Source: a virus
Taxonomy: Duplodnaviria > Heunggongvirae > Uroviricota > Caudoviricetes
DNA: 41,043 nucleotides
Direction: 5' to 3' (one strand)
Virus record (IMG/VR): IMGVR_UViG_2563366998_000006
Positions 18,859 through 37,979 of this stretch are shown here, piece by piece. The position numbers and the translations under genes were made by a program. The notes under the pieces are model-generated. The model was given only the letters and a program-made list of their open reading frames with translations, did no database searches and was not told where the DNA came from. Each line of letters begins with the position of its first letter. The first letter of the stretch is position 1.

Positions 18859-19164
18859 TTATTCGTAGTTGTCACCAGGGAAGTATTCCTGAAACTTTGA
18901 TTTTGGGAGCTGGGTTTTCGCGAAGTTCGCAAGCCTTCCTCTTGTAAGCATGTAGTCACACCCACCTTCTTGTTTGAGAAGGTCACCAGCTAATGTCCGA
19001 TACACAACGTCACTTCGCAAAATTTCAATGGTGGAATTCCTGATGAGAAATGTTTCACACATCGGGCATCTAATTAACCAAGCGGTATCACGGTTCTGCC
19101 AGGTCGCATCTGAATTGCAAGCCGGGCAGCATTTCTGATCTTCTTGTCCTATGACCATTGTCAT
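18859..19164 (-). CDS. Hypothetical zinc-ribbon protein on the opposite strand
   Basis: 101-aa ORF with CPACN...CPMC motif; sits between the lysis cassette and the HNH gene; true start may be the second ATG at 19158 (GAGAG RBS). Confidence 0.45.
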   Translation of the reverse strand: MTMVIGQEDQKCCPACNSDATWQNRDTAWLIRCPMCETFLIRNSTIEILRSDVVYRTLAGDLLKQEGGCDYMLTRGRLANFAKTQLPKSKFQEYFPGDNYE

Positions 19165-19237
19165 GCTCTCGCATAGTGAAGGAATTTTCAGATTAACTCA
19201 TTTTCAGACGCATCGTAATGGCTTAAGGAAACAATTA

Positions 19238-19588
19238 ATGCCACCACGTACACCAAAAGCCTGCCGCGTTCGCGGTTGCCGCCATACCACAACTGACCCG
19301 TCAGGCTATTGCGAAAGCCACAAAAGCGAAGGCTGGAAGCAATACAAACCAGGCCTGTCACGTCATCAGCGCGGTTACGGTTCGAAGTGGGATACCATCC
19401 GTGAACGTGTGCTGAAGCGTGACAAAGGCCTGTGTCAGTTATGTCTGCGTTCTGGTGTGGTGCGTGAGGCGAAAACCGTTGACCACATCATCCCTAAAGC
19501 GCATGGCGGCACTGATGCTGACAGTAATCTGCAGAGTCTGTGCTGGCCGTGCCATAAGGCGAAGACGGCCCGTGAACGGTTAAAGTGA
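19238..19588 (+). CDS. HNH endonuclease (terminase-associated)
   Basis: 116 aa from the ATG at 19238 (AAGGA RBS); CRVRGCRHTT...CQLC...VDHIIPKAHGGTD...NLQSLCWPCH HNH/zinc-finger motifs. Confidence 0.85.
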   Translation: MPPRTPKACRVRGCRHTTTDPSGYCESHKSEGWKQYKPGLSRHQRGYGSKWDTIRERVLKRDKGLCQLCLRSGVVREAKTVDHIIPKAHGGTDADSNLQSLCWPCHKAKTARERLK

Positions 19589-19614
19589 TAATAATTCTCA
19601 ACTGTCTGAGGGGA

Positions 19615-19677
19615 GGGGCGGGTCAAATCCCTGTGACCTGACGTCTTCCGGACTGCCCGCCCCATCGTTTTTTTATA
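19615..19677 (+). other. GC-rich 8-bp inverted repeat (GGGGCGGG/CCCGCCCC) followed by a T7 run; terminator-like or cos-proximal element
   Basis: Arms at 19615-19622 and 19656-19663 followed by TTTTTTT at 19669-19675, between the HNH and small terminase genes. Confidence 0.35.
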
Positions 19678-19713
19678 CCCGCGAAAAATGAAATTTAACC
19701 AGGAGTGCCGCAT

Positions 19714-20208
19714 ATGGCTGGAACGGCGGGGCGTTCCGGGCGTCGCCCCAAGCCAACGGCGCGCAAGGCGCTGGCCGGAAACCCCGGCAAGCGAGCCCTG
19801 AATAAAGATGAACCTGTTTTTACGCCCATCAAAGGTGTTGAGCCACCGGAGTGGTTCGCTGAAGAAGATCTCCCTCTCGCTACGATCATGTGGCAACTGA
19901 CAACTAAAGAACTCTGCGGTCAGGGCCTGCTGTGCGTGACTGACCTCGCGGTGCTTGAGCGGTGGTGCGTGGCCTACGAGTTCTGGCGACGTGCCGTGAA
20001 AAATATTGCCAGACAGGGCAACACCATCACCGGTGCAATGGGCGGTATGGTCAAAAATCCGGAGCTGACCGCCAAAAAAGAACAGGAGTCCGAGATGAGC
20101 AGTACGGGGGCAATGCTCGGACTCGACCCCAGCAGCCGCCAGCGTCTGATTGGCCTGGCGGGGCAGAAGAAAACCACTAACCCGTTTCTGAAAATCATCG
20201 AATCATGA
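19714..20208 (+). CDS. Terminase small subunit
   Basis: 164 aa from the ATG at 19714 (AGGAG RBS 8 nt upstream); [14 protein letters not shown]... directly upstream of the large terminase with overlapping stop/start. Confidence 0.8.
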
Positions 20209-21938
20209 GCCGGAAATCTTACCCCAACGTAAATGCTGCCAATCAGTATGCCCGGGATGTCGTGCGCGGAAAGATTGTGGCCTGCCAGTTTGTGATTCAG
20301 GCCTGCCAGCGCCATCTTGATGACCTGATGGAGGAAAAAAGTAAGTCGTTTCGTTACCGCTTCGACAAGGACCTGGCTGAACGGGCCGCGAAATTTATTC
20401 AGCTGTTGCCGCACACCAAGGGTGAGTGGGCATTCAAACGGATGCCCATCACGCTGGAGCCGTGGCAGCTATTTGTGATCTGCTGTGCGTTTGGCTGGGT
20501 CAATAAAGGCACCCGGTTGCGCCGCTTCCGGGAGGTGTATACCGAAATCCCCCGTAAGAACGGCAAATCAGCAATCTCTGCCGGTGTCGCCCTGTATTGT
20601 TTTGCCTGTGATAACGAGTTCGGCGCGGAAGTGTATTCCGGTGCCACGACAGAGAAACAGGCATGGGAAGTCTTTCGTCCGGCAAGACTGATGTGTAAAC
20701 GCACACCCATGCTGACGGAAGCGTTCGGGATTGAGGTTAACGCCTCAAACATGAACCGTCCGGAGGATGGTGCGCGTTTTGAACCGCTGATCGGTAACCC
20801 CGGTGATGGTTCATCACCCCACTGTGCGGTGGTGGATGAATATCACGAGCACGCCACAGATGCGCTTTACACCACGATGCTTACCGGGATGGGGGCGCGA
20901 CGTCAGCCACTGATGTGGGCTATCACTACCGCCGGGTACAACATTGAGGGGCCGTGCTACGACAAACGGCGGGAAGTCATCGAGATGCTCAACGGCTCGG
21001 TGCCTAACGATGAACTGTTCGGGATCATCTATACCGTTGATGAAGGTGACGACTGGACCGACCCGCAGGTGCTGGAAAAAGCCAATCCAAATATTGGCGT
21101 GTCGGTTTATCGCGAATTTTTGTTAAGTCAGCAGCAGCGTGCGAAAAATAACGCCCGTCTGGCAAACGTCTTTAAAACAAAACACCTCAATATCTGGGTG
21201 TCGGCGCGTTCGGCGTATTTCAACCTGGTGAGCTGGCAGAGCTGCGAGGATAAATCACTGTCCCTTGAGCAGTTCGAGGGGCAGCCGTGCATTCTGGCCT
21301 TTGACCTGGCGCGTAAACTGGATATGAACAGCATGGCGCGACTTTATACCCGCGAGATTGACGGTAAAACGCATTACTACAGTGTAGCCCCGCGTTTCTG
21401 GGTACCGTATGACACGGTGTACAGCGTCGAGAAAAATGAAGATCGACGGACAGCCGAACGCTTTCAGAAATGGGTGGAAATGGGCGTTCTGACCGTTACC
21501 GATGGTGCGGAGGTGGATTATCGCTACATCCTCGAGGAGGCCAAAGCGGCGAACAAAATCAGCCCGGTCAGTGAGTCACCCATCGACCCCTTCGGGGCGA
21601 CCGGGTTGTCACATGACCTTGCTGATGAAGACCTGAACCCCATCACTATCATTCAGAACTACACCAACATGTCCGACCCGATGAAAGAGCTGGAAGCGGC
21701 AATTGAATCGGGGCGCTTTCATCATGACGGCAATCCCATCATGACCTGGTGTATCGGCAACGTGGTCGGCAAAACCATTCCGGGTAACGATGATGTGGTG
21801 AAACCCGTCAAAGAGCAGGCGGAAAACAAAATCGATGGTGCAGTTGCGCTGATTATGGCGGTTGGCAGAGCCATGCTGTACGAGAAAGAAGACACGCTGT
21901 CTGACCACATTGAGTCCTACGGGATCCGCTCGCTTTAA
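20205..21938 (+). CDS. Terminase large subunit
   Basis: 577 aa; size, position and ATPase/nuclease layout typical of HK97-type TerL. Confidence 0.9.
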
Positions 21939-21949: not shown

Positions 21950-22132
21950 ATGATCATGCTGATTCTCGCGCCTCTGGTGGGCGTGCTGGGTGCGCTTTTG
22001 CTGGCATATGGTGCCTGGCTGATTTATCCCCCGGCGGGTTTTGTTGTTGCCGGGGCGCTGTGCCTGTTCTGGTCGTGGCTGGTGGCGCGATATCTCGATC
22101 GTACACAGCTGTCTGTCGGCGGAGGTAAATAG
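21950..22132 (+). CDS. Small hydrophobic protein
   Basis: 60-aa ORF with two hydrophobic segments between TerL and portal. Confidence 0.4.
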
Positions 22133-23373
22133 TGTTCTTTTCGGGATTATTTCAACGAAAAAGTGACGCACCGGTGACCACGCCAGCAGAGCTGGCGGAT
22201 GCCATCGGGTTGTCCTACGACACCTATACCGGAAAGCAGATCAGCAGCCAGCGGGCCATGCGACTGACGGCGGTTTTTTCCTGTGTCAGGGTGCTGGCGG
22301 AGTCGGTCGGGATGTTGCCCTGCAACCTGTATCACCTGAACGGCAGCCTGAAGCAGAGAGCCACCGACGAACGTCTGCATAAGCTGATCTCCACGCATCC
22401 CAATGGCTATATGACGCCGCAGGAGTTCTGGGAGCTGGTGGTCACCTGTCTGTGCCTGCGGGGAAACTTTTACGCCTACAAAGTGAAAGCATTTGGCGAA
22501 GTGGCTGAACTGCTGCCCGTCGATCCCGGCTGTGTGGTACCGAAGCTTAACAGTAGCTGGGAGCCGGTCTATCAGGTCACATTCCCGGATGGCTCCACGG
22601 ATGTACTGAGCCAGGAGGATATCTGGCATGTGCGCACGCTGACGCTGGACGGTCTGGTGGGACTGAATCCCGTCGCCTATGCCCGTGAGGCAATATCGCT
22701 GGCAGCTGCGACCGAAGAGCACGGGGCCGGACTGTTCAGCAATGGCGCGGTGACGTCGGGTGTGTTGCGTACAGAACAGACGCTGTCGGATCAGGCTTAT
22801 GAGCGCCTGAAGAAAGATTTTGAGGAGCGTCACACCGGGCTTGGTAATGCTCACCGCCCGATGATCCTTGAGATGGGGCTGGACTGGAAGTCGATGGCGC
22901 TGAACGCCGAGGACAGCCAGTTCCTGGAAACCCGCAAGTTTCAGCTTGAAGAAATCTGTCGTCTGTTCCGGGTGCCGTTGCACATGGTGCAGAACACCGA
23001 TCGCGCCACCTTCAACAATATCGAAGAGCTGGGGCTGGGATTTATCAACTATTCACTGGTGCCGTATCTGACCCGCATCGAACAGCGGATCAACACCGGA
23101 CTGGTACGAAAAAGTAAGCAGGGCGTTTATTACGCCAAATTTAACGCCGGGGCGTTACTGCGCGGGGATATGAAGTCCCGTTTTGAAGCCTACGCCACCG
23201 GGATCAACTGGGGAATTTACTCTCCCAATGACTGCCGCGATCTGGAAGATATGAATCCGCGTCCCGGTGGTGATGTCTATCTCACACCGATGAACATGAC
23301 CACGAAACCCTCCGATGGCAGTAAAGCCGGTAAGCAGAAGGATAACGCCAATGCAGACGAAACAACGTCTTGA
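22132..23373 (+). CDS. Portal protein (HK97 family)
   Basis: 413 aa, immediately after the terminase; typical size and position. Confidence 0.85.
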   Translation: MFFSGLFQRKSDAPVTTPAELADAIGLSYDTYTGKQISSQRAMRLTAVFSCVRVLAESVGMLPCNLYHLNGSLKQRATDERLHKLISTHPNGYMTPQEFWELVVTCLCLRGNFYAYKVKAFGEVAELLPVDPGCVVPKLNSSWEPVYQVTFPDGSTDVLSQEDIWHVRTLTLDGLVGLNPVAYAREAISLAAATEEHGAGLFSNGAVTSGVLRTEQTLSDQAYERLKKDFEERHTGLGNAHRPMILEMGLDWKSMALNAEDSQFLETRKFQLEEICRLFRVPLHMVQNTDRATFNNIEELGLGFINYSLVPYLTRIEQRINTGLVRKSKQGVYYAKFNAGALLRGDMKSRFEAYATGINWGIYSPNDCRDLEDMNPRPGGDVYLTPMNMTTKPSDGSKAGKQKDNANADETTS

Positions 23374-24001
23374 TGTACCGCTGAGTCTGAAGTCTATCAG
23401 TGACTCCGGTGAGTTTGAAGGGTATGGCTCCGTCTTTGGTGTAAAGGACAGCCACGATGATGTGGTGATGTCCGGGGCATTTGCCGCCTCCCTGCGGGCG
23501 TGGAGTGACAGAAAAGCGTTACCTGCGCTGCTCTGGCAGCACCGCATGGATGAGCCCATCGGTGTTTACACCGAAATGAAGGAAGACGATGTCGGGCTTT
23601 ACGTCAGGGGGCGGTTGCTCATTGATGATGATCCCCTGGCAAAACGCGCACATGCACACATGAAGGCCGGTTCGTTAACCGGCCTTTCTATTGGGTACGT
23701 CCTGAAAGACTGGGAATACGACCGGACGAAAGAAGCCTTTCTGCTAAAAGAAATCGACCTCTGGGAAGTCAGTCTGGTGACGTTCCCGTCTAACGACGAG
23801 GCACGGATCAGCGACGTCAAGAACGCGCTGGCCCGCGGGGAAATCCCCGAACAGAAAAAAATCGAAAGAGTCCTGCGTGATGTCGGACTCTCCCGTACCC
23901 AGGCCAAAGCATTCATGGCCGGGGGCTATAGCGCACTGTCCCTGCGCGACGCTGAGGATGTGAGCTCTGCACTGAATGCACTGAAAAATCTGAACTTCTA
24001 A
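23351..24001 (+). CDS. Prohead protease (HK97 family)
   Basis: 216 aa from the ATG at 23351; lies between portal and major capsid; GYGSVFGVKDSHDDVV motif region. Confidence 0.8.
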   Translation: MQTKQRLDVPLSLKSISDSGEFEGYGSVFGVKDSHDDVVMSGAFAASLRAWSDRKALPALLWQHRMDEPIGVYTEMKEDDVGLYVRGRLLIDDDPLAKRAHAHMKAGSLTGLSIGYVLKDWEYDRTKEAFLLKEIDLWEVSLVTFPSNDEARISDVKNALARGEIPEQKKIERVLRDVGLSRTQAKAFMAGGYSALSLRDAEDVSSALNALKNLNF

Positions 24002-24015: not shown

Positions 24016-25221
24016 ATGGCGGTAGATATTAAAGATGTCGAACAGGTCGCGCAGGAGCTGCAGCAGAAGTTTGACGACTTCAAAGCAAAGAACGACAAGC
24101 GCGTGGAGGCGATTGAGCAGGAAAAAGGCAAACTTGCCGGGCAGGTGGAAACCCTGAACGGAAAACTCAGCGAGCTGGAAAATCTCAAAAGCGACCTTGA
24201 AAAAGAGCTGCTTGAGCTGAAACGTCCGGCAGGTGGTGCGCAAAATAAACTGGCCACCGAGCATAAAGAGGCGTTTGTGGGTTTTCTGCGTAAAGGCCGT
24301 GAAGACGGTCTGCGCGATCTGGAGCGTAAGGCATTGCAGGTGGGCACCGATGAAGACGGTGGCTACGCCGTGCCGGAAGAACTGGATCGCAACATTCTCA
24401 ACCTGCTGAAAGATGAAGTGGTGATGCGTCAGGAAGCCACGGTGATCACCGTTGGCGGTTCCGACTACAAAAAACTGGTGAATCTGGGCGGTACGGCTTC
24501 CGGATGGGTGGGGGAAACGGATACGCGATCCCAGACTGCCACCTCCAGACTGGAGCTGATTGAACCTCTCATGGGGGAAATCTACGGTAACCCGCAGGCC
24601 ACCCAGAAAATGCTGGACGATGCCTTTTTCAACGTGGAGGCCTGGATCAACAGCGAGCTGGCAACCGAATTTGCCGAACAGGAAGAAATTGCCTTTACCT
24701 CCGGCGATGGCACCAAGAAGCCAAAAGGGTTCCTGGCGTATGAATCCACCGATGAAACCGATAAGGTCCGGGCGTTCGGCAAACTTCAGCATATTGTATC
24801 CGGCGAAGCGACGGCGGTGACCGCAGACGCCATTATCAAACTGATTTACACGCTGCGTAAGGCACACCGCACTGGCGCGAAATTCATGATGAACAACAAC
24901 AGCCTGTTTGCCATCCGTCTGCTGAAAGACAGCGAGGGTAACTATCTGTGGCGTCCGGGGCTGGAACTGGGGCAGCCGTCCTCTCTGGCGGGTTACGGTA
25001 TCGCTGAAAACGAACAGATGCCGGATATCGCCGCTGATGCGAAAGCCATTGCATTTGGTAACTTCAAACGGGGTTACACCATCGTTGACCGTATCGGCAC
25101 CCGCATTCTGCGTGACCCGTACACCAATAAACCGTTTGTCGGTTTTTATACCACCAAGCGCACCGGCGGGATGCTGGTCGATTCGCAGGCCATCAAACTG
25201 CTGAAGATTGCAGCGGCGTAA
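24016..25221 (+). CDS. Major capsid protein (HK97 fold)
   Basis: 401 aa with N-terminal coiled-coil delta-domain-like region, following the protease. Confidence 0.9.
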   Translation: MAVDIKDVEQVAQELQQKFDDFKAKNDKRVEAIEQEKGKLAGQVETLNGKLSELENLKSDLEKELLELKRPAGGAQNKLATEHKEAFVGFLRKGREDGLRDLERKALQVGTDEDGGYAVPEELDRNILNLLKDEVVMRQEATVITVGGSDYKKLVNLGGTASGWVGETDTRSQTATSRLELIEPLMGEIYGNPQATQKMLDDAFFNVEAWINSELATEFAEQEEIAFTSGDGTKKPKGFLAYESTDETDKVRAFGKLQHIVSGEATAVTADAIIKLIYTLRKAHRTGAKFMMNNNSLFAIRLLKDSEGNYLWRPGLELGQPSSLAGYGIAENEQMPDIAADAKAIAFGNFKRGYTIVDRIGTRILRDPYTNKPFVGFYTTKRTGGMLVDSQAIKLLKIAAA

Positions 25222-25269: not shown

Positions 25270-25470
25270 ATGATCCTGAAACAAGATCTGAAATGGTCAC
25301 CGGACGGTATGCGTGTTGAGGTCATTCGGGCCGGTGAGTATGACGACGGGGCGCTTCCTGCCCGGGTGCAGGAGATTGCACTTCAGGCTGGGTTAGCAGA
25401 GCGCGGAATCAGTACAAAAAGCAGTAAAGCGGCAAAAGAGAAAAAAGCCACGACCAGTAAAGAGGGCTGA
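25270..25470 (+). CDS. Hypothetical small head-region protein
   Basis: 66-aa ORF between capsid and connector genes. Confidence 0.4.
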   Translation: MILKQDLKWSPDGMRVEVIRAGEYDDGALPARVQEIALQAGLAERGISTKSSKAAKEKKATTSKEG

Positions 25471-25472: not shown

Positions 25473-25796
25473 ATGCTTCTGACAATGGAAGAGATTAAAG
25501 CCCAACTCCGGCTGGATGAGGATTTCGATGCTGATGACCGCCATCTGCAACTGCTGGCCTGTGCGGCGCAAAAGCGGACGGAAACGTATCTGAACCGGAA
25601 GCTCTATGCACCGGATGAAACCATTCCGGACAGCGATCCGGACGGGCTGCACCTGCCGGATGATATTCGTCTGGGGATGCTGATGCTTATCAGCCATTTT
25701 TACGAAAACCGCTCGTCGGTTACGGAAGTGGAGAAACTCGACATGCCGCAGAGTTTTGGCTGGCTTGTCGGCCCGTACAGGTACTTTCCGCAATGA
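25473..25796 (+). CDS. Head-tail connector (gp6-like)
   Basis: 107 aa; position and size typical. Confidence 0.7.
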   Translation: MLLTMEEIKAQLRLDEDFDADDRHLQLLACAAQKRTETYLNRKLYAPDETIPDSDPDGLHLPDDIRLGMLMLISHFYENRSSVTEVEKLDMPQSFGWLVGPYRYFPQ

Positions 25797-26203
25797 AAAT
25801 TCGTCAGGCGCAGACCAGCGCAACCTACATTCTGCCGGACCCCGGTGAACTGAATAAACGCGTCCTGATCCGCCAGCGGGTGGATATGCCCGCGGATAAC
25901 TTTGGCGTGGAGCATCAATACCCGGTTACGTTCCGGACATGGGCGAAGGTTATCCAGACCAGTGCCACCACCTGGCAGGAAACCGCGCAGACTGGAGACG
26001 CCATCACCCATTACATCACCATTCGCTACCGCCGGGGGATCACCGCTGATTATGAGGTGGTCTGCGGTGACAGTGTGTACCGGGTGAAACGTCAGCGCGA
26101 TCTGAACGGGGCGCGGCGCTTTCTGCTGCTGGAGTGTACGGAACTGGGCGAATTTACGCAGAGTCACGGAGGCAGCAATGGCGACTCCCTTTTTTCACGT
26201 TGA
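25793..26203 (+). CDS. Head closure/adaptor protein
   Basis: 136 aa; overlapping gene order in the head-completion module. Confidence 0.65.
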   Translation: MKIRQAQTSATYILPDPGELNKRVLIRQRVDMPADNFGVEHQYPVTFRTWAKVIQTSATTWQETAQTGDAITHYITIRYRRGITADYEVVCGDSVYRVKRQRDLNGARRFLLLECTELGEFTQSHGGSNGDSLFSR

Positions 26204-26684
26204 TGTTCAGCAGCCCGCGGAGATGCGCTTTAACCGCGCCCGTGTCCGGCGGGCGTTTGTCACGATTGGGCAGCGTCATATGCGTGATGCCCGTCGGCTG
26301 GTGATGCGCCGTGCGCGGTCGGCACCGGGTGAAAATCCCGGTTATCAGACCGGACGTCTGGCTCGTTCGATTGGTTACATGGTGCCGAGAGCCAGTAAAA
26401 AGCGAGCCGGTTTTATGACACGCATTGCCCCTAACCAGCGCAACGGGAAGGGGAACCGGATGATCTCTGGTGACTTCTATCCGGCGTTTCTGTTTTTTGG
26501 TGTCCGGGGAGGAGCAAAACGTCGTCGTAGCCATCATCGTGGTGCATCCGGTGGCAGCGGCTGGCGGCTGGCTCCACGTAATAACTTTATGGTGGAAACT
26601 CTTGAAAAGAACCGCAGCTGGACACGCTATTTTCTGGCGCGGGAATTGCGTAAATCACTGAAGCCGGAGCGACGACACAGATGA
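26178..26684 (+). CDS. HK97 gp10-like head-tail joining protein
   Basis: 168 aa basic protein in the head-completion module. Confidence 0.6.
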   Translation: MATPFFHVDVQQPAEMRFNRARVRRAFVTIGQRHMRDARRLVMRRARSAPGENPGYQTGRLARSIGYMVPRASKKRAGFMTRIAPNQRNGKGNRMISGDFYPAFLFFGVRGGAKRRRSHHRGASGGSGWRLAPRNNFMVETLEKNRSWTRYFLARELRKSLKPERRHR

Positions 26685-27241
26685 AACTGACGCCTGTTAT
26701 TGCTGCGCTGCGTGCCCGCTGCCCGTATTTTGAAAACCGGGTGGCAGGCGCGGCACAGTTCAAAAATCTGCCGGAGGTCGGAAAGCTGAGACTCCCGGCG
26801 GCGTATGTGGTACCGGGTGATGACTCTCCGGGAGAAAACAAAAGCCAGACCGACTACTGGCAGGAGCTGAAAGAGGGCTTCTCCGTGGTTGTCATACTGA
26901 GTAACGGGCGTGATGAGCGCGGTCAGTTTGCCTCGTATGATGTGGTGGACGATGTCCGGCAGATGCTCTTTAAGGCTCTGCTGGGCTGGAACCCGGAAGC
27001 GTGCGGTAACCCGATTACCTATGACGGCGGCACGCTGCTGGATCTGAATCGTCATGAGCTGATTTATCAGTTCGATTTTTCGGTCATCAGCGAGCTGACC
27101 GAAGACGATACCCGCCAGCAGGATGACCTGAACAGTCTGGATGAACTGCGAACGCTGGCGATTGATGTTGATTATCTCGATCCCGGTAACGGGCCTGACG
27201 GCGATATCGAACATCACACCGAAATAACCCTTCCTTCCTGA
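26681..27241 (+). CDS. Putative tail completion/neck protein
   Basis: 186 aa immediately upstream of the sheath gene cluster. Confidence 0.55.
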   Translation: MKLTPVIAALRARCPYFENRVAGAAQFKNLPEVGKLRLPAAYVVPGDDSPGENKSQTDYWQELKEGFSVVVILSNGRDERGQFASYDVVDDVRQMLFKALLGWNPEACGNPITYDGGTLLDLNRHELIYQFDFSVISELTEDDTRQQDDLNSLDELRTLAIDVDYLDPGNGPDGDIEHHTEITLPS

Positions 27242-27249: not shown

Positions 27250-27420
27250 ATGTTTGTGAAACCTGTTAAAGGGCGGTCAGTGCCTGACCCTGCCCGCGGC
27301 GACCTTTTGCCCGCCGAAGGGCGAAATGTTGACGAGAACAACTACTGGCTGCGCCGTGAAGCAGCGGGTGATATCCGGCGCGTGAATAAAAAGGTGAATA
27401 CCGATGACGATAAGCTTTAA
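27250..27420 (+). CDS. Small protein preceding the tail sheath gene
   Basis: 56-aa ORF below the ORF-track size cutoff: MFVKPVKGRSVPDPARGDLLPAEGRNVDENNYWLRREAAGDIRRVNKKVNTDDDKL; its stop overlaps the sheath start. Confidence 0.45.
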   Translation: MFVKPVKGRSVPDPARGDLLPAEGRNVDENNYWLRREAAGDIRRVNKKVNTDDDKL

Positions 27421-29256: not shown

Positions 29257-29576
29257 TTGAGCTTGTACTTAAAAAACCGATCATCGCCCACAAAGAAACA
29301 CTGCATGTGTTGGAAATACGTGAGCCTACGTATGACGAGATTGAGGCGCTGGGGTTCCCTTTCTCTGTTTCGCCTGATGGTGGTATGAAAATGGACAGTC
29401 AGGTGGCGCTGAAATATATCCCGCTTCTGGCCGGGATCCCGCGCTCGTCTGCAGCGCAGATGACGAAGCTGGATATTTTCAAGGCAGGCATGATTGTAAT
29501 GCGTTTTTTTACCGGCTTGGAGACGGAAGAGACCTCAGGAAGCGATTCTACAATGTCGCGTGGTTCTGGAAATTAA
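29253..29576 (+). CDS. Tail assembly chaperone
   Basis: 107 aa between tube and tape measure. Confidence 0.6.
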   Translation: MIELVLKKPIIAHKETLHVLEIREPTYDEIEALGFPFSVSPDGGMKMDSQVALKYIPLLAGIPRSSAAQMTKLDIFKAGMIVMRFFTGLETEETSGSDSTMSRGSGN

Positions 29577-29660
29577 ACCCACTTGAACTTCGCCGGACGG
29601 CTATTTCCCACTTTGCTGATCTGGAGGCAGAGGCCGTCCGTATAAATGAGGAGATGAAGC

Positions 29661-31568
29661 ATGGCTGATAATTTTCAGCTGAAAGCCATCATCACCGCCG
29701 TTGACAGGCTATCCGGCCCGCTTAAAGGTATGCAGCGTCAGCTTAAGGGATTTCAGAAAGAAGTCTCCAGCCTTGCTCTGGGTGCTGCCGGGGCGGGTAC
29801 TGCAATAATGGGGGCACTGGCACTCCCTGTAAAATCAGCCATCACCCTTGAATCGAAGATGGCTGATGTCCGCAAAGTGGTGGACGGTCTGGATACGCCG
29901 GATGCATTTAAGGCCATGACGGAGCAGGTACGCGCTTTGTCTACAGAGCTTCCCATGTCTGCAGACGGGATCGCGGAAATTGTGGCGGCTGGCGGTCAGG
30001 CCGGGATTGCACGTGATGAACTGATGCAGTTTGCCACTGATGCGGTGAAGATGGGCGTGGCCTTTGATACAACGGCTGAAGAGTCCGGGCAGATGATGGC
30101 CCAGTGGCGTACTGCGTTTAATATGACGCAGGATGAAGTGGCCGGGCTGGCTGACAAAATCAACTACCTTGGTAATACCGGCCCGGCGAATGCGAAGAAA
30201 ATCTCCGATATTGTTACGCGTATTGGTCCTTTAGGTGGTGTTGCAGGTGTGGCTTCCGGCGAAATTGCGGCAATGGGGGCAACCATTGCCGGGATGGGCG
30301 TGGAGTCAGAAATTGCCGCCACAGGGATCAAGAACTTCATGCTTTCCCTGACCGCGGGAAATTCTGCGACAAAATCGCAGAAACAGGCATTGCGTTTTCT
30401 GCGGATCAATCCGAAGAAATTAGCTGCTGATATGCAGAAAGATGCCCGGGGCACCATGCTGTCTGTACTGGATGCGATGGCTAAAGTGCCTAAAGAAAAA
30501 CGGGCCGCTGTGCTGAATGCCCTGTTCGGGAAAGAGTCTCTGGGCGCGATAGCACCTCTGCTGACTAACCTTGATTTGTTGCGTACCAACTTCAGGCGGG
30601 TTGCGGATTCCCAGCAGTATGGCAGTTCGATGCAGAAGGAATATGCTTCGAGGGCAGCGACGACGGAAAACCAGCTTTTACTTCTGCAAAATCAACTTGA
30701 TGCCATTTCTTCCACGCTGGGGGAAACGTTTCTTCCTGAGGTTAATGATGGTCTTGAAGCGGTAAAACCGCTCCTTGAGGAAGTGAGAACGTTTGTCCGT
30801 GAAAACCCGGAGCTCGTTAAGACCATTGCTAAAATCGGTCTGGCCTTACTGACGGTGGGAGCCGCTGCAGGCTCTTTGTCCAGAATTATGAAAGTTCTCG
30901 GCGGTGTGATGAATATGACGCCAGCTAAGGGGCTGATTGCTCTTCTGGTTGGTGGCGCTTACCTCATTATTGATAACTGGGAAACCGTAGGCCCCGTCAT
31001 AAAAAAAGTCTGGCACGTGGTGGATGAAACGGCGCAGGCGATGGGGGGATGGGAAACTGTTCTGAAAGCGATTGCCCTGTTTATGGCAACCAAATGGGTT
31101 GCTGACGTTACCAAATCCATTACCGCAGTGACCAGAGAGATGCGTACGCTGGGGAAGGTATCGGCAGAAACGGGATTGATGGGGAAAGGCCGCGGCTTTA
31201 TCGGGAAGGCCGGGGGATATGGTTTTCTGGGAACCCTGATGTATGAGCCGGTTAAAGATACTCTGGAAAGTGTTGTTCCTGAAGATACGGTTAACTGGCT
31301 GGATAATAAAGGGCTGTTTCTGGCTTCAGACTGGACGCCTTTTTTTGATCGTAAAGAGTACGAGCAGTATCAGGCCAGCCTGAGCCAGTACAAACCCAAT
31401 GTTCCGCTGTTGAATCCATCTTCTTCCATGACACAGCACAGCGAACTGAAAGTCACGTTCGAGAATGCTCCGCCAGGTATGAAGATAATTGATGTACCGG
31501 GCAAAGCCGATCCCCTGATGAAAATCACGCACGATGTGGGGTATTCCCCTTTTCGTTTTCCACGATAA
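29661..31568 (+). CDS. Tail tape measure protein
   Basis: 635 aa, Ala/Gly-rich helical protein with hydrophobic central segments. Confidence 0.85.
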   Translation: MADNFQLKAIITAVDRLSGPLKGMQRQLKGFQKEVSSLALGAAGAGTAIMGALALPVKSAITLESKMADVRKVVDGLDTPDAFKAMTEQVRALSTELPMSADGIAEIVAAGGQAGIARDELMQFATDAVKMGVAFDTTAEESGQMMAQWRTAFNMTQDEVAGLADKINYLGNTGPANAKKISDIVTRIGPLGGVAGVASGEIAAMGATIAGMGVESEIAATGIKNFMLSLTAGNSATKSQKQALRFLRINPKKLAADMQKDARGTMLSVLDAMAKVPKEKRAAVLNALFGKESLGAIAPLLTNLDLLRTNFRRVADSQQYGSSMQKEYASRAATTENQLLLLQNQLDAISSTLGETFLPEVNDGLEAVKPLLEEVRTFVRENPELVKTIAKIGLALLTVGAAAGSLSRIMKVLGGVMNMTPAKGLIALLVGGAYLIIDNWETVGPVIKKVWHVVDETAQAMGGWETVLKAIALFMATKWVADVTKSITAVTREMRTLGKVSAETGLMGKGRGFIGKAGGYGFLGTLMYEPVKDTLESVVPEDTVNWLDNKGLFLASDWTPFFDRKEYEQYQASLSQYKPNVPLLNPSSSMTQHSELKVTFENAPPGMKIIDVPGKADPLMKITHDVGYSPFRFPR

Positions 31569-31592: not shown

Positions 31593-32969
31593 ATGGATTT
31601 ATCCTCATTTCCCACCCGACCTTCATTACTTTCGTCGTCTTCAGGCTGGCGTGACAGACTTCAGGACGCGTCATTTCGCGGCGTGCCGTTTAAGGTTGAA
31701 GAAGAAAGTGCGGGAACCGGTCGCCGTGTGGAAACACATGAATACCCGAACCGCGACAAACCCTATACCGAAGACCTGGGGAAAATCACTTTTCGCCCGT
31801 CCATCACGGCTTATGTGGTGGGAGATGACTGCTTTGACCAGCGCGATCGCCTGATTGACGCGCTGAATAAACCCGGTCCCGGCACGCTTGTCCATCCGAC
31901 ATACGGTGAGCTGAAAGTCTGTGTTGACGGGGAGGTTCGGGTCAGCACATCGAAGAGTGAAGGGCGTATTGTCCGCTTTGACCTGAAGTTTGTCGAAGCG
32001 GGAGAACTCTCTTACCCCACATCAGGTGCGGCGACGGCGCAGACGCTGATGTCATCCTGTTCTGCACTGGATGACTGCATCAGTGACAGTTTCAGTGGTT
32101 TCAGTATCGATGGCGTGGCAGATTTTGTGCAGAACGACGTCGTCGGTAATGCCAGCACAATGCTTGGGTATGTTTCTGATGCGATGAAAGTGGTGGATTC
32201 TGCCGTATCGGATGCCGCCAGGCTGTTGCAGGGGGATATCTCGGTACTTCTGCCGCCGCCATCGTCAGGCAAAAATTTCGTTGAGCAGGTGCAGAAAATG
32301 TGGCGTACCGGGAAACGCCTTTATGGTAACGCCAGCGACCTGGTCACCATGATCAAAACGCTTTCCGGTGTCAGCCTCGGCAGCGATCTGCAACCGCGCG
32401 GCGTCTGGAAAACGGACAGTAAAACTACCGCTACGGCGACGCAGCAGCGTAACGTGGTTGCCAGCACCCTTCGTACGACCGCAATCAGCGAAGCGGCGTA
32501 TGCCGTCACACGATTGCCTGCGCCAACAACTTCCGCGGTGATGCAGAATGCCGCAATGGGGCAGGCAACAACACCTGCGCAGAGCACTGGCTGGCCTTCC
32601 GTCACGCATCCGGCACTGAACAATGCACCGGCGGTGAAAAGCACGGTTGACCTGCCGACGTGGGAAGAACTGACTGACATTCGCGACACACTGAATACGA
32701 CAATTGATAAGGAGTTGTCCCGTACAACCAGTGATGCGCTGTTTCTGGCGCTGCGCCGGGTGAAAGCAGATCTGAATGCGGATATCAACATGCGCCTTGA
32801 ACAGTCTGCGCGGATCATTCAGCGCACACCGGATGAGGTTTTACCCGCGCTGGTGCTGGCGGCGACCTGGTTTGATAACGCGGCGCGTGACGCGGACATT
32901 ATCCGGCGTAATGCCATTACGCATCCCGGCTTTGTGCCGGTGATCCCTCTGAAGGTGCCAGTGCAATGA
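31593..32969 (+). CDS. DNA circularisation protein (Mu N-like)
   Basis: 458 aa; WRDRLQDASFRGVPF motif near the N-terminus resembles Mu N. Confidence 0.75.
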   Translation: MDLSSFPTRPSLLSSSSGWRDRLQDASFRGVPFKVEEESAGTGRRVETHEYPNRDKPYTEDLGKITFRPSITAYVVGDDCFDQRDRLIDALNKPGPGTLVHPTYGELKVCVDGEVRVSTSKSEGRIVRFDLKFVEAGELSYPTSGAATAQTLMSSCSALDDCISDSFSGFSIDGVADFVQNDVVGNASTMLGYVSDAMKVVDSAVSDAARLLQGDISVLLPPPSSGKNFVEQVQKMWRTGKRLYGNASDLVTMIKTLSGVSLGSDLQPRGVWKTDSKTTATATQQRNVVASTLRTTAISEAAYAVTRLPAPTTSAVMQNAAMGQATTPAQSTGWPSVTHPALNNAPAVKSTVDLPTWEELTDIRDTLNTTIDKELSRTTSDALFLALRRVKADLNADINMRLEQSARIIQRTPDEVLPALVLAATWFDNAARDADIIRRNAITHPGFVPVIPLKVPVQ

Positions 32970-34045
32970 ACGACAATGTCACGCTACGGATAAATGGCCG
33001 GGAGTGGAATGGCTGGACATCGGTGCGCATCGGTGCCGGTATTGAACGGCTGGCGCGGGATTTCAGTGTGGAGATCACCCGCCAGTGGCCGGGTGATGAG
33101 GGTATCACCACGCTTCAGCCGCGCATTAAAAACGGTTCAAAAGTGGAGGTGCTGATTGGTGATGAGCTGGTGATCACCGGCTGGGTGGAGGCGACGCCCG
33201 TTCGTTACGATGCCCGTTCGGTCAGCACCGGTATTGCCGGACGTAGTCTGACGGCTGACCTGATTGACTGTGCAGCCGAACCGACACAGTTTAACGGACG
33301 CTCGCTGGTGCAGATTGCGCAGGCGCTTGCTGCGCCTTTCGGCATTGAGGTGGTGAACAGCGGTGCGCCGTCGGGTGTTATTCCTGATGTTCAGCCTGAT
33401 CACGGTGAAACGGTGATTGAGGTAATCAACAAAATACTCGGTCAGCAGCAGGCGCTGGCTTATGACGACCCGCACGGCAGGCTGGTGATTGGTGGTATTG
33501 GCTCAACGCGGGCACATACCGCGCTGGTACTCGGGGAAAACATCCTTTCCTGCGATACGGAGAAGAGTATCCGGGAGCGGTTTTCTGTTTACCAGGTGGC
33601 GGGGCAGCGTGCCGGAAACGACGATGATTTCGGTGAGGCCACCACCACCGCGCTGCGGGCCCGCACAGAGGACGCATTTATTGCCCGTTACCGTCCGATG
33701 TATATCAGGCAGACAGGACAGGCTACGGGGGCTGGCTGTATTGCCCGTGCGGACTTTGAAGCCCGACAACGGGCGGCGCGGACGGATGAAACCACCTATG
33801 TGGTGCAGGGCTGGCGACAGGGTAACGGTACGCTGTGGCAGCCCAACCAGCGGGTGATTGTCTTTGATCCGGTCTGTGGTTTCGACAACACCGAACTGCT
33901 TGTTTCGGAAGTCACGTTTACTCAGGACCAGAACGGCACCCTGACGGAAATCCGTGTCGGCCCACCAGATGCTTATCTGCCTGAACCCGAAGCCCCCGGC
34001 GCGCGGAAAAAGAAAAAAGCCAGAGTACAGGAGGACCCGTTCTGA
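32966..34045 (+). CDS. Baseplate hub protein (Mu P / P2 D-like)
   Basis: 359 aa following the N-like gene. Confidence 0.75.
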   Translation: MNDNVTLRINGREWNGWTSVRIGAGIERLARDFSVEITRQWPGDEGITTLQPRIKNGSKVEVLIGDELVITGWVEATPVRYDARSVSTGIAGRSLTADLIDCAAEPTQFNGRSLVQIAQALAAPFGIEVVNSGAPSGVIPDVQPDHGETVIEVINKILGQQQALAYDDPHGRLVIGGIGSTRAHTALVLGENILSCDTEKSIRERFSVYQVAGQRAGNDDDFGEATTTALRARTEDAFIARYRPMYIRQTGQATGAGCIARADFEARQRAARTDETTYVVQGWRQGNGTLWQPNQRVIVFDPVCGFDNTELLVSEVTFTQDQNGTLTEIRVGPPDAYLPEPEAPGARKKKKARVQEDPF

Positions 34046-34593
34046 TGAGGACGATTGAAGCCATGCAGCGACAACTCCTCGGCCTGATTGGGCGGGCCGT
34101 GGTGAAAAGCATCAGTGCCGCCACGAAATGTCAGACCGTGGATGTGTCCCTGATTGCCGGTGAACCCAAAGCCGGGGTTGAACATCTTGAACCCTACGGT
34201 TTTACTGCAAGGGCAAACAGTGGTGCGGAAGCGGTGGTGTTGTTTCCGGATGGCGACCGTTCTCATGCGGTGGTTGTTACGGTGTCGGACCGTCGCTACC
34301 GCCTGAAAGGGCTGCAGACGGGGGAGGTGGCTGTCTATGACGATCAGGGGCAGTCCGTGACGCTGACCCGGGAGGGGATTGTGGTGGACGGTGCAGGTAA
34401 AACGATCACGTTTCGCAATGCACCTGAAGCACGTTTTGAAATGGACCTGGAAGTGACAGGACAGGTGAAAGACCTGTGCGACTCCGGCGGCACCACCATG
34501 TCAGCGATGCGGCTTGCCTATAACGGGCATCGTCACAGAGAGAACGGTCAGGGCAGTAACACCGACAAACCTGATAAATCGATGGAGGCATGA
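34045..34593 (+). CDS. Baseplate spike/assembly protein V (Mu gp45-like)
   Basis: 182 aa in conserved baseplate order. Confidence 0.7.
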   Translation: MRTIEAMQRQLLGLIGRAVVKSISAATKCQTVDVSLIAGEPKAGVEHLEPYGFTARANSGAEAVVLFPDGDRSHAVVVTVSDRRYRLKGLQTGEVAVYDDQGQSVTLTREGIVVDGAGKTITFRNAPEARFEMDLEVTGQVKDLCDSGGTTMSAMRLAYNGHRHRENGQGSNTDKPDKSMEA

Positions 34594-35018
34594 TGGAACT
34601 GTGGCTGACGGTGAACGGTAAACGCACCTGCGCCAGCGCACCGCTGGATCCGCTGACCCGCGCCGTGGTGATTTCCCTGTTTACCTGGCGGCGGGCGGAG
34701 CCTGATGACAATGCCGACGTCCCGATGGGATGGTGGGGGGATACCTGGCCTGAGGTACAGAATGACCGTTACGGCTCCCGACTGTGGCTGCTTCAGCGCA
34801 GCAAACTGACCAATCAACTGGTGCAGACGGTAAGGGGGTATATCCGCGAATGCCTGCAATGGATGATTGATGACGGCGTGGTGTCCCGTATTGATCTGGA
34901 TATCCGCCGCACCGGGATTAATGAACTGGGTAACAGTATCACTCTCTGGCGTCGTGACGGACCGGTAATGATTTCTTTTGATGATCTGTGGAGTGCGATA
35001 ACGCATGGCGGACAGTGA
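34590..35018 (+). CDS. Baseplate protein (Mu gp46-like)
   Basis: 142 aa in conserved baseplate order. Confidence 0.7.
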   Translation: MMELWLTVNGKRTCASAPLDPLTRAVVISLFTWRRAEPDDNADVPMGWWGDTWPEVQNDRYGSRLWLLQRSKLTNQLVQTVRGYIRECLQWMIDDGVVSRIDLDIRRTGINELGNSITLWRRDGPVMISFDDLWSAITHGGQ

Positions 35019-36063
35019 ATTTCAGCGCCCGACGCTGGCAGAAAATATCAGTATGCTCCGTAACGATTTATTCGCCAGGCTGGACGTCAGCGACACGCTC
35101 CGGCGCATGGATGAAGACGTGCGGGCAAAGGTGTATGCGGCGGCGCTGCATACGGTTTACGGGTACATCGATTATCTGGCAATGAACATGCTGCCTGACC
35201 TGTGCGATGAGTCCTGGCTGGCGCAACATGCTGCGATGAAACGGTGTCCGCGCAAGGGGGCCACGGCTGCCAGCGGGTATATGCGCTGGGAAGGTGTCAG
35301 CGATGGCCTGAAGGTGACCGCCGGAAGTGTTATTCAGCGCGATGACCTGGTTCAGTACACGGCAACTGCCGATGCAACCAGCACCGGTGGTGTCCTGCGC
35401 GTGCCGATCGCCTGCTCAAGTGCAGGCGCGGTCGGTAACGCTGACGACGGTACGTCATTAATCCTGGTCACGCCGGTTAATGGTCTGCCGTCTTCCGGCG
35501 AGGCAGATACCCTGACAGGTGGATTTGATACTGAAGAGCTGGAAACGTGGCGCGCCCGCGTCATTGAGCGGTATTACTGGACGCCTCAGGGCGGGGCTGA
35601 CGGGGACTATGTCGTCTGGGCTAAAGAAGTGCCCGGCATTACCCGCGCATGGACATACCGACACTGGATGGGAACGGGGACTGTCGGTGTGATGATTGCC
35701 AGCAGTGACCTGATTAACCCCATTCCGGAAGAATCAACGGAAACGGCGGCAAGACAACATATCGAGCCACTGGCCCCGGTGGCAGGCTCTGATTTGTATG
35801 TATTCAGGCCGGTGGCGCACAAAGTGGATTTTCATATCCGCGTGACGCCGGACACACCGGAAATACGGGCTGCCATCACCGCGGAGTTGCGTTCATTCCT
35901 GCTGCGTGATGGTTATCCGCAGGGAGAGCTTAAGGTATCGCGTATCAGTGAAGCGATTTCCGGTGCGAACGGGGAATACAGCCATCAGTTGCTTGCTCCG
36001 GCGGACAATATCTCCATTGCAAAAAATGAACTGGCGGTTCTGGGGACGATTTCATGGACGTGA
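35005..36063 (+). CDS. Baseplate J-like protein (Mu gp47-like)
   Basis: 352 aa in conserved baseplate order. Confidence 0.8.
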
Positions 36064-36638
36064 CAAACGATGATTACATCCGTCTGTTGTCGGCACTGTT
36101 GCCCCCTGGTCCGGCGTGGTCAGCCAGCGATCCGGCGATTGCCGGTGCGGCACAGTCATTAACCCGTGCTCATCAGCGTGCGGATGCCCTGATGCGGGAG
36201 CTGGATCCGCGCACCACCACCGAACTGATAAACCGCTGGGAGCGTCTGTGCGGCCTGCCGGATGAATGTATTCCGGCAGGGACGCAGACCCTTCGCCAGC
36301 GTCAGCAACGGCTGGATGCGAAGGTTAACCTGGCGGGTGGCATCAATGAGGATTTTTACCTTGCGCAGCTTGCTGCCCTGGGCAGACCAGATGCCACCAT
36401 CACGCGATACGACAAAAGCACGTTCACCTGCTCATCGGCCTGTACTGACGCGGTGAATGCGCCGGAATGGCGGTATTACTGGCAGGTCAATATGCCAGCT
36501 GCCACCAACACCACCTGGATGACATGTGGCGATCCCTGTGATTCCGCACTGCGTATCTGGGGGGACACCGTTGTCGAGTGCGTGCTTAACAAACTCTGCC
36601 CGTCGCATACCTACGTAATTTTTAAATATCCGGAGTAA
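36054..36638 (+). CDS. Tail protein (Mu gp48 / YmfQ-like)
   Basis: 194 aa before the tail fibre gene. Confidence 0.7.
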
Positions 36639-36641
36639 TTC

Positions 36642-37574
36642 ATGCATCGTATAGACACGAAAACCGCGCAGAAGGATAAGTTCGGCGCGGGTAAGAACGG
36701 TTTTACCCGTGGTAACCCCCAGACCGGCACGCCTGCCACCGATCTGGATGATGACTACTTTGACATGTTGCAGGAGGAGCTTTGCAGCGTGGTGGAGGCA
36801 TCCGGTGCCAGCCTGGAGAAGGGGCGGCATGACCAGTTGCTTACAGCGCTTCGTGAGCTGCTGTTAAGCCGCAAGAATCCGTTTGGCGATATCAAATCGG
36901 ATGGCACGGTGAAAACGGCTCTCGAAAACCTTGGTTTGGGAGATGGCTCGGGGCGTTACAGCAAAACTGTCGTTTTTTCATCGTCGGGTTCATATACGTG
37001 GCCAGCTGACGTAAAACGAATTGACGTTATTCTGACTGCGGCGGGCGGCGGTGGCGGTGGATGTAACGCGGAGAACGCAAATCAGACATTTTCAGGGGCT
37101 GGCGGAGGAGCCGGAGGTACTGTTTTTGCCACTATTTATGCGACAGACAACGATGCCGGGCCAGGGACCTATACAGTGACAATTGGTAGCGGTGGTAGTG
37201 GTGCCAATGGGCCAGGGTCTGGAAATAATGGCGGTCATAGTTCGTTCATGACATTAACTGCGCTCGGCGGCCAGGGTGGGCAATGGGGCGGCGCTACAAA
37301 TACCGCTGGCGGGCTCGGTGGTTCAGGCTCTGGCGGTTATAAAACTGAACAAGGCGGAGACGGTTCAGACGGACAGGCGGGCCAGGCGCTATTAGTAGGC
37401 AATGGGGCATCGAGCTATTGGGGTGGCGGCGGCCGCGCTGGGCAACTGAGCGGTAATTCTGGAGTTTGCTCTGGCTCCGGCGGCGGGGGTGCATACGATA
37501 ATAGCTATTCACACACGTCAGGACGTGGCGGGCACGGAGCTAATGGCGTGCTGGTAATTCGGGAGTACATGTAA
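36642..37574 (+). CDS. Tail fibre protein with Gly-rich C-terminal region
   Basis: 310 aa; conserved N-terminal fibre-attachment region then Gly-rich repeats. Confidence 0.8.
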
Positions 37575-37979
37575 ATGAATGATGTTTATGCAGTTGTTGA
37601 TAATAACGTTGTTATTAATGTCATTATCTGGGACGGAATTTCTGAATGGAAACCAGAGGCTGGTAATTTAGTTCCGTTAAACGGCGATGCTGGCATCGGT
37701 TGGTCATATTCAGACGGAGTATTTACCGCGCCACCTCCCCCAGAACGCTCTCACAACGCGTTAGTTGCGGAGGCTGAGCTGCAGAAATCAGCACTACTGA
37801 CCGTAGCAAATAACGCAATAGCACCGCTGCAGGATGCCGTTGATTTGGAAATGGCGACAGACGATGAACAGACGTTACTGCTGGCGTGGAAAAAATACAG
37901 GGTACTGCTGAACCGTGTTGATACCTCAGCGGCACCCGAAATAGAGTGGCCTACGCAACCGGGGGAGCGGGCCAGTTGA
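37575..37979 (+). CDS. Tail fibre assembly protein (Tfa)
   Basis: 134 aa; C-terminus ...[15 protein letters not shown] is Tfa-like; directly downstream of the fibre gene. Confidence 0.8.

Follow-up and report, generated by a model that had tools for sequence, protein, structure and literature searches.

The 41,043-nucleotide (nt) stretch of viral DNA analyzed here in full (IMG/VR record IMGVR_UViG_2563366998_000006; hereafter the window) is almost exactly one prophage. The virion block studied, at 19151-37979, is with a probability of about 0.93 the complete late (virion) operon of a temperate myovirus of the SfV/SfIV family, present in Escherichia coli as a prophage integrated at lambda attB. 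It carries about 26 intact genes, which join an HK97-type head to a Mu-type tail on a lambdoid backbone, an architecture already known and described in 2002-2003. The block begins at the first ATG of an extended open reading frame (ORF) for an HNH endonuclease (annotated start 19238) and ends with the stop codon of the fiber-assembly gene at 37979.

A virion operon nearly identical to those of SfV-like myoviruses

The block is 97.5% identical in nt sequence to Shigella phage SfIV across 90% of its length. With SfIV, SfII, SfI and vB_EcoM-720R4 taken together, identities are 97-97.5% across 79-94% of the block, while the nt match to SfV spans 59% of the length. The virion proteins from the small terminase subunit (TerS) to gp48 are full length and share 90-100% amino acid (aa) identity with those of SfIV, with the exception of one neck protein (60%); the fiber tip and the fiber assembly chaperone Tfa lie outside this range. 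Under the electron microscope SfIV is a myovirus, its isometric head measuring ~55 nm and its contractile tail ~101 nm; it was isolated as a phage, lysogenizes and converts serotype (PMC3851460). 'SfV-like' phages have been defined as lambdoid Myoviridae (PMC3603311, citing Allison 2002 and Mmolawa 2003).

What was observed directly is the homology, the order and intactness of the genes, and their near-identity to phages of proven myovirus type. By analogy with SfIV, where both have been shown, a contractile-tailed particle and O-antigen serotype conversion are predicted for this element. An earlier note on this DNA, made from the sequence alone, had recognized the architecture of serotype-converting myoviruses of Shigella and E. 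coli, and the ~97% nt identity to SfIV, SfII and SfI, together with the presence of gtrA, gtrB and a GtrC-type gene, bears this out. The whole-genome comparison that it proposed places the element close to SfV-like references, with no nt similarity to Mu, and the element can be assigned with confidence to the SfV/SfIV family of temperate myoviruses at lambda attB.

The prophage of E. coli CFSAN061770 is 100% identical across 19151-37979, as are prophages in several complete E. coli genomes. Its length is ~38.9 kb in CFSAN061770 and ~40.1 kb in the window owing to an extra IS5. Among 5,426 complete E. coli genomes, 2,218 (~40%) match the virion block, and in 803 of these the match covers 80% or more of the block. 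It belongs to an ordinary and very common E. coli prophage type.

Packaging and head genes

Identities come from tblastn comparison of the translated plausible genes of the window against SfV, Mu, HK97 and lambda, and E-values from phmmer against a small panel of 36 reference proteins (late proteins of Mu, head and neck proteins of HK97). In this panel the head genes matched HK97 only and the tail genes matched Mu only, with E-values far beyond chance; matches of head genes to the Mu head, or of tail genes to the HK97 tail, did not occur. Pfam and PHROG family calls agree with this partition. The packaging and head genes are as follows.

19238-19588, plus strand: HNH endonuclease (Pfam HNH, 61 bits; 37% identity to HK97 gp74, phmmer E 9.6e-10)
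19589-19713, plus strand: cos region (154 of 157 nt identical to the SfV end-to-start junction)
19714-20208, plus strand: TerS (Terminase_4; PHROG 83)
20205-21938, plus strand: large terminase subunit, TerL (TerL_ATPase and TerL_nuclease; 26% identity to HK97 gp2, E 6.5e-29)
21950-22132, plus strand: YmfR small membrane protein, moron-like, between terL and the portal gene (PHROG 502, E 1.5e-27)
22132-23373, plus strand: portal (Phage_portal, 361 bits; 31% identity to HK97 gp3, E 1.4e-55)
23351-24001, plus strand: S78 prohead protease (Peptidase_S78, 110 bits; 36% identity to HK97 gp4, E 7.5e-26)
24016-25221, plus strand: major capsid protein with a delta-like N-terminal domain (Phage_capsid, 267 bits; 26% identity to HK97 gp5, E 6.9e-6)
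25270-25470, plus strand: conserved 66-aa ORF directly 3' of the capsid gene, function unassigned (PHROG 1020, E 6.5e-44)

A cos site flanked by an HNH endonuclease gene and the terminase genes is an arrangement known for HK97-type packaging machines, and the HNH gene found here adjoins cos and terminase as that of HK97 gp74 does. The ends of SfV virion DNA map to ~19646/19647, SfV coordinate 1 being window position 19647, which places the cos junction between the HNH endonuclease and TerS. SfIV shares this cos site with SfV (PMC3851460).

TerL, portal, protease and capsid matched their HK97 counterparts only, as the earlier note had proposed, and so did the HNH endonuclease, the aa identities being 26-37%. 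Its description of the terminase as HK97-like applies to one subunit: TerL matches HK97 gp2, and TerS has no pairwise match to HK97 gp1, which belongs to PHROG 5601. The match between the capsid protein and HK97 gp5 is the weakest of the head in the 36-protein set (26% identity over 42% of its length). Solved structures matching the capsid protein are HK97-family capsids, the nearest being that of the Rhodobacter gene transfer agent (RcGTA, 6TB9, E 8e-76), which is much closer than HK97 gp5. At the level of these comparisons, the term 'HK97-like' fits the head as a family assignment only. Portal, protease and capsid share 97.5-99% aa identity with SfIV; portal and capsid share only 25-28% with SfV, and the protease found no match there in the aa comparison.

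At the positions of K169, N356 and E363, the residues that crosslink the HK97 capsid, an alignment of 23% identity has gaps in both the window and the SfV capsid proteins, and chainmail crosslinking is therefore probably absent from this capsid. It may be stabilized by other means, for which the 66-aa ORF 3' of the capsid gene is a candidate. The copy of this ORF in SfIV (95.5% aa identity) is unannotated, the one in Salmonella phage ST64B is annotated Sb7, and SfV is without it.

No ORF lies between the protease and capsid genes, and there is no separate scaffold gene. The Pfam Phage_capsid domain begins at residue 115, preceded by an N-terminus with a weak coiled-coil-like match. Because of this late domain start, and because the HK97 maturation site K103/S104 aligns with ERK/AL with the K invariant, the capsid N-terminus may serve as a scaffold of the delta-domain type that the S78 protease cleaves off.

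Tail and baseplate genes

Downstream of the head-tail joint, twelve consecutive tail genes are homologs of Mu genes in the Mu order. The genes from the sheath region to the last wedge protein are given below; the fiber genes are listed further on.

27250-27420, plus strand: Mu gp38-like DUF2635 protein (42% identity to Mu gp38, E 5.6e-13)
27404-28900, plus strand: tail sheath (36% identity to Mu L, E 5.7e-84; best PDB match the Mu tail, 9KHY/9KI1, E 2.8e-80)
28900-29256, plus strand: tail tube (Mu M, E 1.8e-4, both in PHROG 185; Pfam Tail_tube, 113 bits)
29253-29576, plus strand: tail assembly chaperone (Pfam Phage_TAC_7)
29661-31568, plus strand: tape measure (Pfam PhageMin_Tail, 147 bits; PHROG 28)
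31593-32969, plus strand: N/gp43-like tube initiator (DNA_circ_N; Mu N, E 2.6e-18; PDB match Mu N in 9KI1)
32966-34045, plus strand: P/gp44 hub (GpP-like domains; 35% identity to Mu P, E 5e-54; PDB matches Mu gp44 1WRU and MuSo2 3CDD)
34045-34593, plus strand: gp45 spike (Phage_Mu_Gp45; Mu gp45, E 6.7e-18)
34593-35018, plus strand: gp46 (Pfam GP46; Mu gp46, E 1.7e-18)
35005-36063, plus strand: gp47 (Baseplate_J; Mu gp47, E 8.5e-42)
36054-36638, plus strand: gp48 (Phage_Mu_Gp48; Mu gp48, E 1e-14)

The proteins matching Mu do so at 30-43% aa identity. That sheath, tube, N, P and gp45-48 are Mu-like, as had been proposed, was confirmed by the Mu homologs and by the Mu-named Pfam families that they matched. 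By comparison of sequences, the term 'Mu-like' applies to the tail at the protein level only: blastn found zero nt similarity to Mu, and the lack of DNA similarity to Mu is also remarked upon in the description of SfIV (PMC3851460). Apart from Rz/Rz1, tblastn matched no window ORF to Mu genes outside the segment from gp38 to U, and no Mu early, transposition or head genes were detected. The cryo-electron microscopy model of Mu assigns roles to the terminator, sheath, tube, tape measure, gp43 initiator, gp44 hub, gp45 spike, gp46/47/48 wedge and fiber (PMC11915804). By analogy, the tail parts encoded in the window would map one to one onto this model.

The -1 frameshift in the chaperone gene is conserved in long-tailed phages. 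Here, T_TTT_TTT at 29504-29510 in the gene is a perfect slippery heptamer for a -1 shift, and the -1 frame continues for ~52 codons (29510-29668, stop 29666-29668), overlapping the tape-measure start, to give a predicted fusion of 138 aa. The chaperone gene of SfV has T_TTT_TTC at 9614, in the same phase and with a similar -1 extension. The predicted frameshift is unannotated in the records of the RefSeq prophage, SfV and SfIV. The tape measure that follows shares 99% aa identity with that of SfIV and 24% with that of SfV.

The head-tail joint

The boundary between the head and tail modules lies between the end of the head closure gene at 26203 and the DUF2635 start at 27250. Four genes lead from head to tail, of which the last two are the joint genes proper.

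25473-25796, plus strand: head-tail adaptor Ad1 (PHROG 40, as HK97 gp6; Pfam Phage_connect_1)
25793-26203, plus strand: head closure protein Hc1 (PHROG 25, as HK97 gp7; Pfam Phage_HCP)
26178-26684, plus strand: Neck1/tail-completion protein (PHROG 879)
26681-27241, plus strand: tail terminator (PHROG 209; Phage_tail_terminator, 93 bits; a weak sub-threshold Gp37 match)

Comparison of the joint genes with Mu gp37, Mu gp36 and HK97 gp10 by hhalign, on shallow profiles of four sequences, gave probabilities below 1%, and a PDB sequence search with the tail terminator returned no match. Single-sequence AlphaFold2 models of the neck protein and the tail terminator were unusable, with mean pLDDT values of 36.7 and 37.4. 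It is conceivable, if rather doubtful, that the Neck1-like protein and the tail terminator form a dedicated third 'coupling' module that docks HK97-type heads onto Mu-type tails, the capsid being stabilized by other means. Within the family, the window's tail is paired with the SfV-type head allele in SKA5, and its head allele with a Mu-type tail that has diverged further in ST64B; the reassortment of head and tail alleles thus takes place around the genes for adaptor and closure.

Integration, immunity and late control

The window begins at the ybhC stop codon and ends inside gtrA. Following the att core, the genes are arranged as int-xis, early region, cI/cro, replication genes, Q, lysis cassette, virion genes and gtr cluster, so that the lambdoid order of int-xis, cI-cro, replication, Q, lysis and virion genes is present throughout. 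The features outside the virion block that define this backbone are the following.

1-1284, minus strand: ybhC, at the window start
1331-1345, plus strand: lambda/HK97 att core (attL), exact GCTTTTTTATACTAA, beside ybhC (0.01 expected by chance)
1419-2489, minus strand: int (100% aa identity to HK97 Int, 99% to lambda)
2467-2685, minus strand: xis (100% aa identity to HK97 Xis, 99% to lambda)
7355-8047, minus strand: cI-like repressor (helix-turn-helix and S24/UmuD-like peptidase matches)
8145-8405, plus strand: cro-like gene (helix-turn-helix match)
13276-13632, plus strand: Q-family antiterminator gene (Pfam PF06530, 160 bits)
17204-17494, plus strand: non-coding region, conserved, preceding the holin gene (putative late promoter, qut site and tR')
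17495-18819, plus strand: lysis cassette of holin, endolysin and Rz/Rz1 (96-100% aa identity to SfV S, R, Rz and Rz1)

A second att core lies just past gtrA in E. coli CFSAN061770 (locus L001), where it adjoins ybhB-bioA, and the element is therefore placed at the classical lambda attB between ybhC and ybhB, in the lambda orientation. The proposed lambda-type integration was thus corroborated by both the att core and the near-identity of Int and Xis to those of HK97 and lambda. Homology to HK97 DNA (99.2%) begins exactly at the att core and covers int-xis. Shigella relatives have an SfV-type Int and integrate at thrW (PMC3851460), and SfV-like prophages occupy five sites in E. coli (PMC3603311). 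Use of thrW by an SfV-type Int, together with a 46-bp attP, is characteristic of the Shigella members and not of the wider group, and was not found here.

The HK97-type int/xis DNA joins SfV-like early genes at ~2738-2787. Among 5,426 complete E. coli genomes, 33 contain this junction, whereas 50,697 phage records yielded no instance of it. A PAPS-reductase-family gene (3141-4019, minus strand; 79% aa identity to lambda NinC; PADLOC SspD match, E 1.2e-14) is located in the leftward early operon beside xis and not in the nin region.

The divergent cI-like and cro-like genes, with their helix-turn-helix and S24 peptidase matches, agree with the cI/cro switch that had been described. They flank an operator region of 97 bp with repeated ATTGCG-type motifs, and the immunity region is a non-SfV allele. 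The early region is common, at 94-96% nt identity, to the siphovirus vB_EcoS-569R4 and to Stx2a phages. No match to lambda or HK97 N was found among the tested ORFs of the window, with small unlisted ORFs and nut sites outside the search. Rfam and tRNA scans of the whole window (1-41043) found no Rfam family at the gathering threshold and no tRNA gene.

Q is 86% identical in nt sequence to the Q of some Stx2a phages and 55% identical in aa sequence to that of SfIV. The non-coding region upstream of the holin gene contains a hairpin resembling a terminator (17321-17342), behind which a T-rich stretch extends to ~17352; the region is 95% identical in nt sequence to SfII, partly (93.7%) to Stx2a phages with the same Q type, and also occurs in SfIV. 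For the Q-dependent late control put forward in the earlier note, the Q-family gene itself was found, and the control is plausible from that gene and the hairpin. The endolysin shares 87-89% aa identity with lambda and HK97 R.

The IS5 insertion and the Q-to-lysis slot

Between Q and the lysis genes, the following accessory sequences were found.

13612-15834 and 17030-17203, minus strand: DS-1 gene pair of low G+C content (~0.36) (NCBIfam DS1_2, 375 bits; DS1_1, 451 bits)
15835-17029: IS5, 1,195 bp (transposase at 15980-16996, minus strand; target duplication CTAA at 15831-15834 and 17030-17033)

Both DS-1 equivalogs score above their cut-offs. DS1_1 is a YejK-like 'nucleoid-associated anti-phage protein', its neighbor gene lies at 13612-14826, and PADLOC v2 gave no match for the pair. 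The YejK nucleoid-associated domain has recently been validated in defense (PMC13092281). The IS5 interrupts the reverse-strand, YejK-like accessory gene, so that the DS-1 system is probably inactive in the window; an intact copy is present in CFSAN061770 (L001, 11161-13553). The insertion is missing from otherwise identical prophages and was found at this site in no complete E. coli genome.

The slot between Q and the late promoter (window 13632-17494) holds a reverse-strand two-gene cassette in each compared phage: the PADLOC candidate PDC-M53 (PDC-M53A/B) in SfII (NC_021857, 35581-37195), an uncharacterized gene pair in Stx2a_1447 (AP012536, 13770-15333), and an insertion sequence with two genes in SfIV (35435-37354). 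From this recurrence, the slot looks like a cargo or defense hotspot.

Tail fiber, assembly chaperone and gtr cluster

The end of the virion operon and the adjoining serotype-conversion genes comprise six features.

36642-37574, plus strand: tail fiber (Pfam Gly_rich_2; Mu S N-terminus, E 8.4e-6)
37575-37979, plus strand: fiber assembly chaperone Tfa (Caudo_TAP; 37% identity to Mu U, E 9.8e-17; 67% to the C-terminus of lambda Tfa)
37951-38076, minus strand: inverted tfa fossil of 42 codons, a C-terminal fragment overlapping the end of the functional tfa (in RefSeq, partial tail fiber assembly protein)
38281-39768, minus strand: GtrC-type serotype-specific transferase, 495 aa (Pfam Glucos_trans_II)
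39755-40684, minus strand: gtrB (Pfam Glycos_transf_2)
40681-41043, minus strand: gtrA, adjoining attR (Pfam GtrA)

The fiber gene is a single intact ORF of 310 aa, with a conserved N-terminal anchor of ~100 aa and a swapped glycine-rich C-terminal tip from ~36944; homology to SfV and SfIV stops at 36943. RefSeq lists this gene as two in the identical prophage, one a 'partial stfP pseudogene' and the other a 'glycine-rich domain protein'. The split looks like an annotation artifact of the fiber's mosaic origin. The 42-codon tfa fragment is, judging by its sequence and inverted position, a remnant of a Mu G-like invertible fiber segment. No functional invertible G segment or Gin invertase was found in the window, whereas the related phage SKA5 has retained a complete invertible segment and a DNA invertase.

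The gtr cluster sits between the tail genes and att, with the attR core 344 bp beyond gtrA in CFSAN061770. GtrA and GtrB share 86-87% aa identity with SfV, while the GtrC-type protein reaches at most 27% identity to any protein encoded in the phage collection. The region 36944-39788, comprising the fiber tip, Tfa and the GtrC-type gene, has no counterpart at 85% nt identity or more in the 50,697 phage records. We considered the fiber tip, Tfa and the GtrC-type gene as one travelling cassette for receptor binding and receptor modification, and rejected this, as the parts occur both together and apart. Some part of this segment is present in 71 E. coli genomes and the whole of it in 32. In many of the 71, the fiber tip and Tfa are present but this GtrC-type gene is not, and in at least one the gene lies beside a tailspike instead; the fiber tip and the GtrC-type gene reassort independently.

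Because no sequenced phage carries these fiber-tip, Tfa and GtrC-type alleles, neither the serotype effect nor the host range can be read from the Shigella relatives, whose alleles differ.

Weighing of alternative explanations

Three points weigh against the assignment of the block to a complete SfV/SfIV-family virion operon with an HK97-type head and a Mu-type tail. The neck and terminator genes at the joint are assignable by sequence to neither parental family. The capsid appears to be without the HK97 crosslink triad, so that 'HK97-type' would stop short of chainmail chemistry. Finally, the IS5 inserts 1.2 kb of DNA between Q and the putative late promoter, where polar or regulatory effects are possible; the insertion lies in a reverse-strand accessory gene, and the ~40.1-kb prophage is within the family range of 37-41.5 kb.

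The alternative that survives best is that the block belongs to a decaying, non-inducible cryptic prophage, like e14 and CPS-53 of K-12, and no longer specifies particles. The IS5 inserted in the prophage would fit such decay, as would the partial or frameshifted status that RefSeq gives to Rz, stfP and one early gene in the identical prophage, and the many E. coli genomes with partial matches only (803 of 2,218 reach at least 80% coverage). However, the virion ORFs are all intact and full length when compared with the functional phage SfIV, both att cores are present together with intact int and xis, and the IS5 disrupts an accessory defense gene only. Furthermore, Rz is full length and 95% identical compared with SfV, and the 'split' fiber is one 310-aa ORF. 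We therefore regard a cryptic prophage as unlikely.

Tail clusters of SfV-like type without head genes are known as pyocin-like elements in Pseudomonas (PMC2647930), and the tail half could on that precedent be a stand-alone contractile bacteriocin (tailocin) cluster beside unrelated head genes; yet the genes for head, neck and tail run without a break along one strand, as a single operon whose stops and starts overlap and whose organization is identical to that of isolated phages, and the tape measure, cos and terminase are present, which makes this highly improbable. A genuine Mu-like transposable phage with an acquired foreign head, to which the run of twelve Mu homologs in Mu order would point, deserves next to no credence in view of the zero nt similarity to Mu, the lack of any ORF matching Mu A, B, c, ner, C or mom, the site-specific Int/Xis and att cores at a fixed chromosomal site, and packaging of the cos type rather than the Mu-type headful.

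Proposed working of the operon

For this strain, we infer how the late operon of an SfV/SfIV-family myovirus would be transcribed, how its capsid would be processed and its chaperone gene frameshifted, and how particles would arise. After induction, the Q-type antiterminator would let transcription from a putative late promoter in front of the holin gene continue into the genes for lysis and the virion. The HNH endonuclease, TerS and TerL would then cut at cos near 19647 and fill a prohead built from the portal, the S78 serine protease and the HK97-fold capsid protein, whose N-terminal ~110 residues may act as a built-in scaffold, because there is no separate scaffold gene. Adaptor and closure proteins of the HK97 gp6/gp7 type, the Neck1 protein and the tail terminator would link the head to the tail. 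The tail is predicted to be of the Mu-type contractile kind, with sheath, tube, -1-frameshift chaperone and tape measure, and to end in a simple baseplate of the gp43-like tube initiator, the gp44 hub, the gp45 spike and the gp46/47/48 wedges, together with the fiber and its chaperone.

Comparison with known phages

The chimerism of head and tail in SfV-like phages has been textbook modular phage evolution since 2002-2003, and little follows from the present case for basic biology; its practical value lies in annotation.

The closest relatives, SfIV (NC_022749), SfII, SfI and vB_EcoM-720R4, have the same cos, lysis genes and much of the early region, and carry gtrA and gtrB beside att. They differ in Int, Xis and attP, being integrated at thrW instead of lambda attB, in the cI/cro allele and in Q (55% aa identity). 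The DS-1 pair in the Q-to-lysis slot is the window's own, and the fiber tip, Tfa and GtrC-type gene also differ.

SfV (NC_003444), with which the group was founded and whose structural genes have been described as coming from two phage families, shows the same architecture and gene order. Its proteins from the tail terminator to the tube and from N to gp48 are 98-100% identical to those of the window, and TerS and TerL 97-99%. In contrast, its portal and capsid represent another HK97-family allele, the chaperone and tape measure share only 44% and 24% aa identity, and Q, immunity, Int and the GtrC-type gene differ. In a blastn mosaic map against SfV, SfV-like and non-SfV blocks alternate. The non-SfV blocks comprise int-xis, immunity, part of replication, Q to the late-promoter region, chaperone with tape measure, and the fiber tip, Tfa and GtrC-type gene; a further one, from ymfR through portal and protease to capsid, is a second HK97-family allele common to SfIV, SfII and Salmonella ST64B.

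HK97 has the same families for the HNH endonuclease, TerL, portal, S78 protease, capsid and gp6/gp7-type connectors, but its head proteins are only 26-37% identical, its TerS family differs and its crosslink residues are not alignable with the window's capsid. The tail of HK97 is lambda-like and non-contractile. Mu, on the other hand, has homologs of gp38, L, M, N, P, gp45-48, S (N-terminus) and U in the same order, while its neck/terminator and chaperone proteins fall into other PHROGs. Finally, the traits specific to this copy, namely lambda attB, the immunity allele, Q, the DS-1 cargo and the fiber-tip and GtrC-type alleles, are routine mosaic variation.

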